Source of the DNA: an uncultured Bacilli bacterium
GTDB taxonomy: Bacteria > Bacillota_I > Bacilli_A > RF39 > UBA660
Length of the DNA stretch: 64,000 bases
Assembly: GCA_947632405.1 (NCBI GenBank)
Contig: CANRPE010000002.1
Span: forward strand, 1,254-65,253
Direction: 5' to 3'
Shown here one piece after another: positions 33,211-39,268 of this stretch. The notes under the pieces are model-generated. The model did no database searches. It worked only from the letters and a program-made list of their open reading frames with translations, and was not told the DNA's origin. Both the position numbers and the translations under genes were made by a program. Within the stretch, counting starts at the first letter, position 1. Every line of letters starts with the position of its first letter.

Positions 33211-34197
33211 TTAATGTCTGAAAATACCAAATAATTTATTTCCATCTTCTGAATCTCTATTTGTTTCATCATAAATTCCTAATCTAGAAAGGAAATCATT
33301 TAAAACACTATTTTTTTCACGATCATTTAAAGATGGTATATTATAAAACATTTTAGAATTTGCTTCATATTCAAATTCCGTAACATCCTTATTTGAAAGC
33401 ATACTTTTATTTAATACAACCTTTTTACCTTTTAACTTTTCAAATACATTTTGATTATTCCTAATTAATTGATTTAATTTAATTGTACTTGGTTCTAATA
33501 AATAAATTGTTTCAGAACATAAGGAATCTTTTTTTGAACCATTTAAATCAACCAAAACAACATTAGCATTGCTTAATTGATCTAACTTTGATTCTAATTC
33601 TCCTTCTGAAATAGAAATCATATCTTTAGAATTAAAATATGAAAAATCTTTTTTATTTAATTCTAAAGCATAAACTCCATTATTATAATATTTTTTTAAT
33701 TCTTTAAATAACATGTAAATAAGTGTAGTAGCACCAGCGCTTTTTGTAATATTTTGAAAACCTATTACTTTTTTTATTGATGAATAATGACTACTACTAT
33801 CTGATGTTTCATTAGATGATGCATTTAACTCTTGTAACTGTTTTACATCATCATAAGTATTTGGTTTAGCTATTAATCTTTTAATAGCATTAATATTATT
33901 TGTAAAATTATAAAGTCCGACATCGATTAACGCAGATAAATAATTAGATGAGCATAATTCATCAGTAAGTAATAAAATTATTTTTTCTGCTCCTAATCCC
34001 ATAGCAAGTCTTTCAACATTATTAGTGTTTCTATATTCTTTTATTGCAGTTACATCAATAATTATTTTTTCATAAAAGAAAGTCTTAAACATTGAAATTA
34101 GTTCATCAACAGAATATTCACCAGTAACACTTTTAATAACATCAATATCAAGTGCTGTTAAATCTTTACTACTTTGATTTGAAACAATGACATTCAT
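33211..34197 (-). CDS. TadZ/CpaE-like protein (receiver-like N-domain plus degenerate ParA/MinD-type ATPase domain)
   Basis: The N-terminal ~120 aa look like an atypical receiver. The second half begins VIGFQNITKSAGATTLIYML, a deviant Walker A in place of KGGVGKT, with a later VVLVDLNGS. Its position in the Tad-like operon fits. Confidence 0.4.
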   Translation of the reverse strand: MNVIVSNQSSKDLTALDIDVIKSVTGEYSVDELISMFKTFFYEKIIIDVTAIKEYRNTNNVERLAMGLGAEKIILLLTDELCSSNYLSALIDVGLYNFTNNINAIKRLIAKPNTYDDVKQLQELNASSNETSDSSSHYSSIKKVIGFQNITKSAGATTLIYMLFKELKKYYNNGVYALELNKKDFSYFNSKDMISISEGELESKLDQLSNANVVLVDLNGSKKDSLCSETIYLLEPSTIKLNQLIRNNQNVFEKLKGKKVVLNKSMLSNKDVTEFEYEANSKMFYNIPSLNDREKNSVLNDFLSRLGIYDETNRDSEDGNKLFGIFRH

Positions 34198-34230
34198 TTT
34201 ATCACACTCCGTTTAACTATAATAAAACTA

Positions 34231-34716
34231 TTAACAAGTAGCATCCTTGTTAATAGTCATTGTATCTCCAGAAGTTTGAAAAAAAGTCATAAATGGTATA
34301 AACTTATTAAATATAGGTACATCGATATCAACCATTGTAACTACATGATAATAACCATTAGGAATACCCGCAGCAGCTGCATCTTTATTTGGAAACCATT
34401 TTACACAATAACCTTCCACACAATGATAAGGACAACTTGAATCAAAATTCAAATCAGGTCGTGAGCTTCCAAAGTTACTTTCTGCTACGCGACTATTTAA
34501 TTCTGGAACATTATAACCAATCTCTTTTATATATTCTTGAATTACTTGCTTAGATTTATCATTATAACCTTCATACTGTTCTAAAGTAGAAATTATTTTA
34601 TTTTTTACTTTATATGCTTTGTTATAACTTACTGAAAATGCTAAATAGCCACTGACTACTAACATAAATACAGCAATAAACGTAATATTTACAACACCGC
34701 CAATGGCATCACGCAT
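34231..34716 (-). CDS. TadE/TadF-like pseudopilin (161 aa)
   Basis: Short polar leader MRDAIGG, then VVNITFIAVFMLVVSGYLAF. It lies directly downstream of the small pilin gene and shares the G-x(2,3)-N-[IL]-T-[VF]-I N-terminal pattern. Confidence 0.45.
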   Translation of the reverse strand: MRDAIGGVVNITFIAVFMLVVSGYLAFSVSYNKAYKVKNKIISTLEQYEGYNDKSKQVIQEYIKEIGYNVPELNSRVAESNFGSSRPDLNFDSSCPYHCVEGYCVKWFPNKDAAAAGIPNGYYHVVTMVDIDVPIFNKFIPFMTFFQTSGDTMTINKDATC

Positions 34717-34751
34717 TTACAACACCTCTTTTAATTTTATTATATAATTAT

Positions 34752-34910
34752 TCACCCTTTGTCAACAGTTTCAGTCTGATTAATTTGATCCCATTGGTCA
34801 TTTATTCCTTTTTGAATATTAGGCCACATCCACCAAAAGAAACCTATTACTGCTGCAATAGCGATTAATGTAATAACTGTTAAGTTTAATTCTCCTGTTG
34901 CTGCTTTCAT
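34752..34910 (-). CDS. Candidate major pilin (52 aa, Flp-sized), absent from the ORF track
   Basis: Hand translation: MKAATGELNLTVITLIAIAAVIGFFWWMWPNIQKGINDQWDQINQTETVDKG, ending at TGA. It has its own strong promoter and the RBS AAAGGA, and sits between the TadC-like and pseudopilin genes. Confidence 0.55.
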   Translation of the reverse strand: MKAATGELNLTVITLIAIAAVIGFFWWMWPNIQKGINDQWDQINQTETVDKG

Positions 34911-37963: not shown

Positions 37964-37996
37964 CTAACCACTTCCCTTTTTATTCTTTTATTCTTT

Positions 37997-38800
37997 TTAT
38001 TCTGTCCAAACAGTAATACTATTTATATAATCTTTAAGTTCTTCACTACTTAATTTTAAATCTCCTGGTTCATCTTTTAAGCTTTCTGCAGTAGGAACAG
38101 GAATTAATGTAGTAGAAACTGATCTTAAATACTTTGCTTTATTTAAAAGAATGTAATATTCTTGAGGTACTGCAAAGATTAAAGTAGCAGGAGTTTTATT
38201 TTCATCTACATCTGCAAAAACATTATTACCACTACTATCATTAACAGCAATAACTTCTACATTTTCTAGTAATTTTCCTACCATGATTTTATCACTAGTT
38301 ACAATATTTTCTCCTTCAGCTTGAGCATTCTGTGCTTTTAAGTAAATATCAATATAATTTCCAGGATAAATTGCATTACCATATGTAGTTTCAGTATCTA
38401 CATTCATATAATATAGAACATAACCTTCAGGATAATCATATATAATCTCATCTGGTAATTGATTTTTCTCTACAACACTTCTTTTATAAAATAAGCTTCC
38501 TTGAGGAATTACACTATCTGCATTTGCATATTTATTAACTACTTCATTTACATTAGTATAAGCAAAGCCATCATTTATTGTTTCTGATGATACATTTTTA
38601 GTACCAATCATTTCTGATGTAATTTGTGTACCAGGTTTTATTGTTTCTCTAGCATATGGAACATTAATTGGAGTAATAGCTTTATTTACTCTCGCATTAT
38701 ATCCAAAATATAATACTAAAACAGCAGCAATTACACCAATAACTGTAACTGTATTTTTATTAGATAATATTTTCTTTATTGTAATACTAATATTTCCCAT
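37997..38800 (-). CDS. CpaB/RcpC-like pilus assembly protein (SAF domain)
   Basis: N-terminal TM, then VPYARETIKPGTQITSEMIGTKNV (the SAF-domain pattern of CpaB). It lies directly upstream of the ATPase. Confidence 0.65.
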   Translation of the reverse strand: MGNISITIKKILSNKNTVTVIGVIAAVLVLYFGYNARVNKAITPINVPYARETIKPGTQITSEMIGTKNVSSETINDGFAYTNVNEVVNKYANADSVIPQGSLFYKRSVVEKNQLPDEIIYDYPEGYVLYYMNVDTETTYGNAIYPGNYIDIYLKAQNAQAEGENIVTSDKIMVGKLLENVEVIAVNDSSGNNVFADVDENKTPATLIFAVPQEYYILLNKAKYLRSVSTTLIPVPTAESLKDEPGDLKLSSEELKDYINSITVWTE

Positions 38801-38821
38801 TTTATTCTTCCTTTCTAAATT

Positions 38822-39268
38822 TTAATATAGTCCTTTTAAATATTTTGTTGTTAAAATAGGATCCTGTTTATTATTTGTTTCTAAGATTCCTTCAAGTCTT
38901 GTTGAAATATTAACATTAGAAGTTCCATCTGGAGAAAAACTATTATTAAGTGAATCTATTTGAATTGTAACTTTAGGTGGTACTTCATTAATATCATAAA
39001 ATTTAATATCATATTCTCTAGAATTATCAACATTAGATGCAAATCTAAGGACGAAGTTTTCAACAAACTTCTCCTTATCTATTCTATATACACCACGTTC
39101 TGTATGATATGAAGTATCAATAGCATCCATCATTGCTGCTTGAGTTGTTTCTTTTAATAAATAATAATCTAGTTCATTTCCTGTAGAATAATTAGTAATT
39201 AAGTTAATAGCCGCTAAAGCTAAAATACTTAATACAATGATACCTACTGTTAAATATGCTTTATTCAT
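38822..39268 (-). CDS. N-terminally anchored 148-aa protein, possible pseudopilin
   Basis: MNKAYLTVGIIVLSILALAAINLI is followed by a small alpha/beta-looking domain. It sits between the giant protein and CpaB genes. Confidence 0.35.
   Translation of the reverse strand: MNKAYLTVGIIVLSILALAAINLITNYSTGNELDYYLLKETTQAAMMDAIDTSYHTERGVYRIDKEKFVENFVLRFASNVDNSREYDIKFYDINEVPPKVTIQIDSLNNSFSPDGTSNVNISTRLEGILETNNKQDPILTTKYLKGLY

Follow-up and report, generated by a model that had tools for sequence, protein, structure and literature searches.

A Tad-like gene block within a conserved type IV secretion cluster of uncultured gut Bacilli

The conjugation operon of plasmid pLS20 runs from the Tie adhesin (gene 34) through small proteins to gene 36 (126 aa, with an N-terminal transmembrane (TM) helix), gene 37 (the ATPase), gene 38 (268 aa), gene 39 (243 aa), gene 40 (120 aa) and gene 41 (47 aa), followed later by VirD4 (gene 48, CD1115 family) and VirB6. 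Genes 36 and 38–41 are described as unknown, and the family is credited with a VirB11 homologue and no pilus components (PMC8557374). The family is also found on pXO2/pAW63, Listeria and Peribacillus plasmids, and on the Peribacillus, Listeria and pXO2 plasmids a TrbC/VirB2-family gene comes after the block. Here, we analyzed a 64-kb stretch of DNA from an uncultured Bacilli bacterium (GenBank assembly GCA_947632405.1, contig CANRPE010000002.1, positions 1,254 to 65,253), hereafter the window, in which a Tad-like block on the minus strand (33211-39268) forms the middle section of a ~33-kb type IV secretion system (T4SS) gene cluster (17960-51489). We consider it about an even call that this locus is a Tad-derived type-IV-filament module of a composite Gram-positive T4SS and not an independent Flp adhesion pilus. 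An earlier note, made from the sequence alone, had presented the block as a self-contained Tad operon; all of its open reading frames (ORFs) were recovered in place, but the block proved to be the center of a conserved T4SS supercluster, homologous to pLS20 genes 36–39.

The gene order resembles that of the pLS20 family. In both, a surface adhesin, a small protein with an N-terminal TM helix, an ATPase, two polytopic proteins of ~250-290 aa and small single-TM proteins come in turn, with VirB2-like, VirD4, VirB6 and VirB4 genes after them; the window VirD4 belongs to the same CD1115 family and shares one cluster with VirB4-like and VirB6-like proteins and a glucosaminidase+CHAP hydrolase. The DUF5411 gene takes the place of gene 36, directly upstream of the ATPase block, and the surface-protein block occupies the position of the pLS20 Ses and Tie adhesin genes (PMC8557374). 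Profile-profile comparison with hhalign connected the individual members: the 297-aa polytopic protein (TM297) matched the gene 38 family (98.2%, E 4e-14), the 260-aa polytopic protein (TM260) matched the gene 39 family (95.1%, E 3.4e-8), and the DUF5411 protein matched the gene 36 family of pLS20, Peribacillus, Listeria and pXO2 (81.9%, E 1e-5, 103 columns). The ATPase aligned with pLS20 gene 37 in a BLAST comparison at 1e-47, with 34% identity. The 161-aa and 52-aa proteins, considered as homologues of genes 40 and 41, respectively, were rejected as such, their hhalign values of 7.8% and 0.8% being not significant. We found no literature linking pLS20 genes 36 or 38–41 to TadB/C; our coverage of the literature was incomplete, and the relationship may have been recognized before.

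The window cluster differs from its plasmid relatives in several respects. It is chromosomal, lies at a fixed site and has no relaxase in the window; it adds CpaB/RcpC-SAF and ParA/MinD-like proteins, neither of which was observed in the pLS20 block; genes 40 and 41 have no detectable homologues among its small proteins; its ATPase carries a C-terminal low-complexity tail, whereas the plasmid proteins have an N-terminal extension; and a sortase and different surface proteins replace the thioester adhesin Tie. The locus is a Tad-like and T4SS hybrid, and its plasmid counterpart is known genetically but unannotated. A related ATPase of 577 aa is encoded by Lactococcus cremoris pJM4A (locus L092, 2057-9894) in a different block, comprising a 662-aa AAA ATPase, a 268-aa protein, the ATPase, hypothetical proteins of 279 and 319 aa and BspA-type surface proteins, with no T4SS genes in view. 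This block may be a free-standing relative of the module.

To assess conservation, we scanned one genome per GTDB species using the ATPase alignment as query, which returned 333 related stretches, and analyzed the best 80 loci. All 80 come from uncultured gut Bacilli, with human, rabbit, mouse, ruminant and chicken hosts, and carry labels that include Clostridium sp. CAG:417 and CAG:451, Mycoplasma sp. CAG:877, Candidatus Faecimonas and ‘Tenericutes’ UMGS bins. The same nine genes of the Tad-like block occur in the same order in the 80 species-level genomes wherever the contig reaches, single genes being found in 66-80 of the 80 loci. The order, essentially invariant as far as the contigs extend, is SpoU, a 520-aa protein (p520), an Ig-like protein, sortase, a 990-aa protein, DUF5411, CpaB, the ATPase, TM297, TM260, the 52-aa, 161-aa and 328-aa proteins, two VirB2-like proteins, VirB6, a 106-aa protein (p106), a split VirB4 and the hydrolase. 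The T4SS block directly follows the Tad-like block in 57-68 loci, and the order of p520, the 599-aa Ig-like protein, sortase and the 990-aa protein is kept in 71-77. The far flank, recovered by a metagenome scan with VirD4, is also kept: VirD4, (p434), rhodanese, (VTT), RmuC, DUF3603, TrpS and GatCAB. Relatives whose VirD4 is 54-77% identical and whose ATPase is 70-88% identical thus use the same insertion site, between the SpoU methylase and rhodanese-RmuC-TrpS-GatCAB. Since both housekeeping flanks are kept despite such divergence, which indicates vertical inheritance, the ~33-kb region is a vertically inherited chromosomal supercluster and not an obvious mobile element. In a megablast search of the plasmid and phage collections, the 6-kb locus had no match, and the papers that we consulted on the RF39/RFN20-type Bacilli lineages make no mention of pili or secretion systems.

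Remote homology places the two polytopic proteins. Searches against PDB sequences with single sequences and profile hidden Markov models (HMMs) of TM297, TM260 and the 328-aa protein yielded nothing meaningful, and the 297-, 260-, 52-, 161- and 328-aa proteins were without a match in Pfam or NCBIfam. Full-length remote homologues of TM297 came from an HMM search of 1.84 billion representative proteins, and one of them (P0522) matched Pfam T2SSF at 2.3e-5 and 24.8 bits, slightly under the 25.2 cut-off. We compared the families with eight canonical TadB/C proteins from the Azospirillum, Vibrio, Sinorhizobium and Micrococcus Tad loci. The extended TM297 family reached 93.3% in hhalign (E 2.6e-7, 225 columns), and 95.2% (E 2.5e-8) when joined with the gene 38 family, the two comparisons spanning 216-225 columns. 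The joint TM260 and gene 39 family matched that of TM297 and gene 38 at 96.6% (E 6e-10), and TadB/C directly at 33% (E 4.4e-4). Negative controls for the TadB/C comparison, using VirB6-like, p520, CpaB and TadZ alignments, gave at most 1.9%. Profiles built from the window clade only fail against TadB/C (0.4% and 1.7%), and the link needs the added remote homologues. We accept TM297 and TM260, on this remote homology, as divergent platform proteins of the GspF/TadB/C superfamily, TM260 probably being the second platform subunit. The earlier proposal of two T2SS-F-like platform proteins is thereby backed, with a remote profile link for TM297 and a paralogous one for TM260.

The ATPase was previously considered a secure CpaF/TadA. 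All of its boxes are indeed present (Walker A GETGSGKT, Asp box IEDTLEL, Walker B-like KWILLSEVR and His box GHNILSTIHA), it matches Pfam T2SSE at 4e-27, and it stands as a hexameric-type secretion ATPase of that superfamily; the narrower assignment is not secure, as the protein sits apart from CpaF in a tree and reaches no NCBIfam cut-off. Against PDB sequences, FlaI (1e-18) and CpaF (3e-18) matched over most of the length and VirB11 scored 1e-13, a ranking left unchanged when the family profile was used. The NCBIfam scores were 108.9 bits for VirB11, 107.9 for the TadA-family conjugal-transfer ATPase, 94.5 for TrbB and 91.1 for FlaI, all far below the respective cut-offs (249.95 bits for the VirB11 model, TIGR02788). 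In a tblastn search of 72,556 plasmids, the nearest relatives were Firmicute plasmid genes annotated ‘CpaF/VirB11 family’ (138-167 bits), from pLS20, Peribacillus, Listeria, pXO2, pXO1 and Lactococcus; proteobacterial CpaF (95-100 bits) and VirB11/TrbB (71-84 bits) formed weaker classes. We built a small neighbor-joining (NJ) tree of 302 columns with 200 bootstraps and without an outgroup. In this tree, the window clade joins the ‘putative VirB11’ ATPases of Firmicute plasmids (pLS20/pXO2/Listeria) with 90% bootstrap, and the two together stand apart from CpaF (100%), TrbB (100%) and VirB11 (94%), the deeper branching being not resolved. Clustering with the VirB11 of the adjacent T4SS, which the earlier note had held to speak against a Tad assignment, was thus found in one sense: the ATPase groups with pLS20 gene 37, the T4SS ‘VirB11’ of the literature. 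By its position in the tree, however, the clade of gene-37-type ATPases is not canonical VirB11.

The unusual Pro/Val/Gln-rich tail reported for the ATPase is real and is not peculiar to the window. While the core (residues 1-345) is 75-90% identical across the window clade, a C-terminal tail is present in 16 of 16 aligned relatives and is hypervariable, not alignable and ~70-350 aa long. The pLS20-type ATPases have no such tail and carry N-terminal extensions instead.

Two further proteins of the block recall Tad systems. The 267-aa protein matches Pfam RcpC (3.9e-7, 30.4 bits, cut-off 28.8) and Pfam SAF (5e-4, 21.0 bits, cut-off 21), as well as TIGR03177 cpaB at 1e-11, under the cut-off of that model. 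Its family aligns with four canonical CpaB proteins at 94.5% in hhalign (E 7.6e-8), and the gene is present in 80 of 80 loci. The earlier identification of a CpaB-like SAF protein is therefore confirmed, both Pfam thresholds being passed. The 328-aa protein, whose gene was found in 70 loci, gave an AlphaFold2 (AF2) model with a predicted local distance difference test (pLDDT) score of 82, consisting of an alpha/beta domain (1-124), a disordered Ser-rich linker and a C-terminal domain (142-310). In a Foldseek search against PDB, the C-terminal domain resembled ParA (3ea0, 7e-4) and MinD (4v03, 1e-3), and also FleN, FlhG, HypB and NifH, whereas the N-terminal domain resembled the RcsB receiver domain. 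TadZ was not among the top 50 fold matches, and hhalign against four canonical TadZ/CpaE proteins gave 3.9%. The P-loop reads KSAGATT in the window and xHAGATT in the clade consensus, which lacks both P-loop lysines, so that ATP hydrolysis is doubtful. The modeled fold thus suggests a ParA/MinD-like protein of TadZ/CpaE-type architecture, with support at the level of the fold. Of the earlier description of a TadZ-like protein with a degenerate Walker A, the two-domain fold and the KSAGATT motif hold, whereas the sequence profile does not connect it to TadZ/CpaE. The structural comparison that the note had proposed was informative for this protein, with its ParA/MinD-like fold; the model of the 297-aa protein was too poor for a fold test.

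The 52-aa protein is the candidate for a major filament subunit. Its N-terminus, MKAATGELNLTV, has no E-Y at +5/+6, and neither do those of 66 homologues. The family pattern MK[AE]A[TS]GEL[NS][LM]TV is near-invariant in 66 loci; a hydrophobic helix comes after it, and the protein ends in a short polar tail. The spacer between TM260 and the 52-aa gene contains TGnTAWAAT in 60 of 70 loci, as part of a conserved promoter (TTGnnA, 16-17 nt, TGnTATAAT) followed by the ribosome-binding site (RBS) GAAAGGAG. This site was the exception in a generic promoter scan that was otherwise uninformative, with fewer sites than in shuffled sequences. It also coincides with the one wider gap (88 nt) in a tightly packed block whose other intergenic gaps are 14-35 nt. 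A private promoter and a near-invariant N-terminus are expected of an abundant structural subunit and make the 52-aa protein the likely major one, judging by sequence. We found neither a Flp G/XXXXEY motif nor a Pfam match in it, so that of the previously proposed ‘Flp-sized pilin’ the size and the pilin-like topology hold, while the Flp label has no sequence support.

The 161-aa family starts M-R-D-A-x-G-G-x-V-N-L and has a G-x-x-N-[LI]-T register in common with the 52-aa protein. Its gene is the fastest-evolving member (29-64% identity) and is tandemly duplicated in ~10 loci (e.g., L009, L011, L015, L024). Fast evolution and duplication resemble those of minor pilins and provide circumstantial grounds for regarding the 161-aa protein as a candidate minor subunit. 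The 148-aa protein clearly belongs to Pfam DUF5411 (1.7e-45; 78 of 80 loci). Neither it nor the 161-aa protein matches Pfam TadE, and the ‘TadE-like pseudopilin’ of the earlier note consequently lost its sequence support; its statement that the pilin-like N-termini lack the G-xxxx-EY and TadE EF hallmarks was confirmed. A Gly followed by a Glu ahead of a hydrophobic stretch is also seen in the actinobacterial pLMA7 Tad pilin-like proteins (…ERG-ESGVGLL…, …EHG-ESSLLVL…), a resemblance only. In loci L023 and L038, a second copy of the pair encoding the 990-aa and DUF5411 proteins lies upstream of the main cluster. Together with the tandem 161-aa copies, this extra pair suggests diversification of exposed components. 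A 13-bp inverted repeat spans the stop codon of the 161-aa gene (34226-34258; ~-20 kcal/mol as RNA). As a terminator of the pilin operon it was rejected, since the hairpin is not conserved (median z -0.1 over 70 loci versus shuffled sequence); the close relative L003 has a comparable one (-18.7 kcal/mol).

No TadV/CpaA prepilin peptidase had been seen anywhere in the 64 kb, and our searches agree: a Pfam scan of window ORFs of 90 aa or longer gave no Peptidase_A24 match, and no multi-TM ORF of the window contains a GxGD motif. The earlier note had listed this absence as an oddity. In Bifidobacterium, however, tadV is ‘consistently placed outside’ the tad cluster and was undetectable in 12 species (PMC13091076). 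As a peptidase outside the cluster is the rule there, its absence in cis is not unusual for a monoderm, and the Tad locus of Micrococcus pLMA7 likewise has no peptidase.

The coordinates of the block and of its neighbors are collected in Table 1.

Table 1. Positions of the Tad-like block, the flanking T4SS and surface-protein genes and associated features in the window (TM, transmembrane; RBS, ribosome-binding site)
Feature	Position	Strand	Description
DUF5411 protein, 148 aa	38822-39268	minus	N-terminal TM helix and extracytoplasmic domain
CpaB/RcpC-like protein, 267 aa	37997-38800	minus	N-terminal TM anchor, SAF and RcpC domains
Secretion ATPase, 424 aa	36689-37963	minus	CpaF/VirB11/FlaI superfamily, pLS20 gene-37 clade; core = residues 1-345
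ATPase low-complexity C-terminal tail	36692-36928	minus	Pro/Gln/Val/Asn-rich, ~residues 346-424
Polytopic platform protein, 297 aa (TM297)	35781-36674	minus	divergent GspF/TadB/TadC superfamily (remote homology); pLS20 gene 38 homologue
Polytopic protein, 260 aa (TM260)	34999-35781	minus	paralogue of TM297; pLS20 gene 39 homologue
Extended -10 promoter and RBS upstream of the 52-aa gene	34947-34974	minus	TTGTTA, 16 nt, TGgTATAAT, then GAAAGGA RBS
Flp-sized 52-aa protein	34752-34910	minus	short basic leader, then hydrophobic helix; candidate major filament subunit
161-aa protein	34231-34716	minus	pilin-like N-terminus (MRDAIGGVVNITF...), Cys-containing extracytoplasmic domain; candidate minor subunit
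328-aa two-domain cytoplasmic protein	33211-34197	minus	N-terminal alpha/beta and C-terminal ParA/MinD-like domain, degenerate P-loop KSAGATT
Three-gene insertion	29472-33120	minus	180-aa protein with N-terminal TM, 521-aa FAD-dependent oxidoreductase, 500-aa polytopic protein (~9 TM)
Gram-positive T4SS block	17960-29384	minus	Pfam, NCBIfam
Two paralogous VirB2-like T4SS_pilin genes, 112 and 149 aa	29046-29384, 28505-28954	minus	hhalign 99.3% to each other
Split VirB4, 188 and 596 aa	25649-26215 (188 aa), 23862-25652 (596 aa)	minus	slight overlap
VirD4	19285-21405	minus	NCBIfam conju_CD1115, 311.8 bits (cut-off 250)
434-aa surface protein	17960-19264	minus	after VirD4
Surface-protein block	39285-51489	minus	990, 599, 1051, 585, 520 aa; Bact_surface_Ig-like 1e-14
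Sortase	42250-43029	minus	Pfam Sortase 7e-9; TLVTC active site

In addition to the tabulated genes, the T4SS block contains a 652-aa VirB6-like protein, the 106-aa protein, the glucosaminidase+CHAP hydrolase and a lipoprotein. The best VirB4, VirB6 and T4SS-pilin-like matches are all families of Mycoplasma integrative and conjugative elements (ICEs); for VirB4 this is the Mbov_0397 family (351 bits, NCBIfam). The 188-aa VirB4 ORF is the N-terminal part, matching positions 90-276 of the Mycoplasma ICE VirB4 model, and since the split is kept in 57 of 80 loci, it is no sequencing error or pseudogene. The 149-aa VirB2-like gene has its own extended -10 promoter-like site (28990-29018). With these genes, the cluster encodes T4SS-type small subunits alongside putative type IV pilus-type ones. 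No LPXTG sorting signals were detected in the large surface proteins near the sortase. The 585-, 599- and 434-aa surface proteins end G-x-G-[ST]-x-x-N-P-Y-x-I-x-[KR], and the 990- and 1051-aa ones end N-T-R-[IL]-G-[FY]-N-N-N; these shared C-terminal motifs may be unrecognized sorting or assembly signals. The three genes that split the Tad-like block from the T4SS block in the window occur in only 0-5 of the 80 loci, which marks them as a lineage-specific insertion. The oxidoreductase among them is of the amine-oxidase type (Pfam Amino_oxidase and NAD_binding_8), and the insertion could be a surface or pilin glycosylation cassette.

The window has ~25% GC, flat along the region, and looks chromosomal, its housekeeping and other genes including aspS, gatCAB, trpS, tRNA-His, cotJB with a Mn-catalase-type cotJC, rmuC and the SpoU methylase; beyond it, the source contig continues with RecG and a small ORF. 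The cotJB, cotJC and tRNA-His genes are neighbors, at 4406-5502 and 5631-5706. The presence of cotJB and cotJC suggests that this low-GC organism, probably with a reduced genome, still sporulates.

Beyond the plasmids, the block invites comparison with Tad/Flp (type IVc) systems of monoderms, such as Bifidobacterium breve tad and Micrococcus pLMA7. Like these, it encodes a CpaB/SAF protein, an ATPase of the CpaF superfamily, two GspF-family proteins, a pilin-sized protein of ~50 aa, larger pilin-like proteins and a ParA-type protein, and as in Bifidobacterium the peptidase is not in cis (PMC13091076). In contrast to them, its ATPase lies outside the canonical CpaF/TadA clade; it has no Flp G/XXXXEY motif, TadE domain or direct Pfam T2SSF match; its TadZ-like gene stands at the end of the block and has no sequence similarity to TadZ/CpaE; and the block is linked to a T4SS, physically as well as in its evolution. 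The divergent Tad cluster of TANB77 is also conserved across a clade of uncultured gut Firmicutes, has most of its parts recognizable only by structure or remote homology, and includes pilin-like proteins without sequence homologues (PMC11680825). It thus sets a precedent for clade-wide divergent Tad clusters in such bacteria. TANB77, however, is an order of the Clostridia and not the Bacilli, and its cluster encodes TadZ as well as CpaE, a TadA of 640 aa and a 693-aa protein in which TadC and TadB are fused, with no T4SS association reported (PMC11680825). A Tad-like machine coupled to another secretion system has a functional precedent in the Kil and T3SS* pair of Myxococcus (PMC12075869), in which a Tad-like apparatus works with a needle-less type III secretion system (T3SS) in contact-dependent killing (PMC8460266, PMC12075869). 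Myxococcus differs in being a diderm with canonical Tad components and a T3SS-like body as the partner, whereas the coupling proposed here is deduced from gene linkage.

The main rival to a filament is a pilus-less energizing module, in which the ATPase would be the VirB11 equivalent, the polytopic pair its dock and the small proteins unprocessed channel components. The literature points this way, naming the pLS20 homologue a ‘putative VirB11’ and reporting no pilus components (PMC8557374, PMC11730352), as do the top NCBIfam score of the ATPase (the VirB11 model, 108.9 bits), the VirB2-like T4SS_pilin proteins already in the cluster, the non-canonical N-termini of the small proteins and the absence of an A24 peptidase in cis from every one of the 80 loci. 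The ATPase also resembles canonical VirB11/TrbB in its superfamily, its four motifs and its being encoded with VirB4 and VirD4. Still, the VirB11 score is far under the cut-off, and the protein forms a separate clade from VirB11 in the tree. Moreover, canonical VirB11 has no GspF-like or CpaB-like partners, whereas TadB/C-related partners and a CpaB-like protein, hallmarks of a filament machine, are found here, and it is hard to see why a stoichiometric channel part should have an invariant N-terminus and a strong promoter of its own, as the 52-aa protein does. On balance, we hold the pilus-less module to be unlikely, but well worth keeping in view. Other observations count against the filament-module reading. 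Systems of the pLS20 type are described as having no pilus (PMC8557374, PMC11730352); TM297 and TM260 have no direct Pfam T2SSF match; the AF2 model of TM297, built on a shallow alignment of 73-89% identity, has a pLDDT of 62 and its Foldseek results are noise; and the TadB/C link is remote and dependent on profile-profile comparison. The 52-aa and 161-aa proteins start with sequences that match none of the Flp, TadE and classical G/F-xxx-E patterns, and no homology of either protein to a pilin, or to pLS20 genes 40 and 41, could be detected; a prepilin peptidase is absent from the window ORFs scanned and from the conserved cluster of all 80 loci. In addition, the ATPase owes its placement to a small NJ tree without an outgroup.

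Two further explanations are less likely. The block might be a self-standing divergent Tad/Flp adhesion pilus that lies beside a T4SS by chance, with its TadV elsewhere in the genome. The genes for CpaB, the ATPase, the platform pair, the small and larger pilin-like proteins and the ParA-like protein do follow the monoderm Tad order (cf. the Micrococcus plasmid), FlaI and CpaF precede VirB11 among the PDB sequence matches, a tadV outside the cluster is normal in Bifidobacterium (PMC13091076), and TANB77 offers a precedent (PMC11680825). A chance neighborhood is nevertheless improbable given that the block is joined directly to T4SS genes in most of the 80 genomes that reach that far, with intervening genes in 2-5, that the ATPase, both platform proteins and DUF5411 are each most similar to genes of the pLS20-family conjugation operon, and that Flp, TadE and TadV signatures are all absent. 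Alternatively, the whole 33-kb region could be an active ICE or a recently integrated pLS20-like plasmid, with the Tad-like block as its mating-pair-formation module; this would explain the homology to a plasmid conjugation operon and the presence of VirD4 (CD1115, above the cut-off), a VirB4 whose best match is a Mycoplasma ICE, VirB6-like and VirB2-like genes and the hydrolase. We regard it as very improbable, since the 64-kb window contains no relaxase, integrase, recombinase or replication gene, its GC content is flat along the region, and the same site and flanks in divergent relatives indicate vertical inheritance.

Under the reading that we favor, a Tad-derived module within a composite T4SS, we infer a filament or piston. 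The ATPase would dock on a heterodimeric platform of the 297-aa and 260-aa proteins and push the 52-aa protein from the membrane to form a short filament or piston, with the 161-aa and DUF5411 proteins as possible minor or tip subunits. The CpaB-like protein would guide this structure through the cell wall, while the ParA-like protein with its dead P-loop might position the machine. The filament could then help the adjacent T4SS to make or cross cell-cell contact, with the surface proteins acting as adhesins. Genes 36–39 of the pLS20 family probably do the same job in conjugation. A more far-reaching version we put forward tentatively, with clearly less than even confidence: a Tad-derived motor made up of the ATPase, the TadB/C-like pair, the CpaB-like protein and a new class of mini-pilin (G-E-L-N-L-T-V N-terminus) would be an integral, co-inherited part of a Gram-positive T4SS, serving as a domesticated, relaxase-less core apparatus of uncultured, reduced-genome gut Bacilli, and the same motor-platform module would be present in the pLS20, pXO2 and Listeria plasmids.

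It has long been a puzzle how Gram-positive conjugation systems and T4SSs, in the absence of a conjugative pilus, contact a partner and cross the thick wall. If this more far-reaching version is correct, a major family of Gram-positive conjugation systems so far regarded as pilus-less, and perhaps more than one, would assemble a structure resembling a type IV filament, and might do so with no classical A24 peptidase. The analysis ties two ‘unknown’ pLS20 genes to the TadB/TadC platform family by remote homology, and assigns their ATPase to a distinct clade that is always found together with them, which opens the question to experiment in B. subtilis carrying pLS20, a tractable host. Several unannotated protein families, and what is likely a new N-terminal signature of the pilin-like kind, are further results. 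For the uncultured gut Bacilli themselves, the presence of the cluster in at least 80 species makes it a candidate key to how these bacteria attach to, or exchange material with, other cells.

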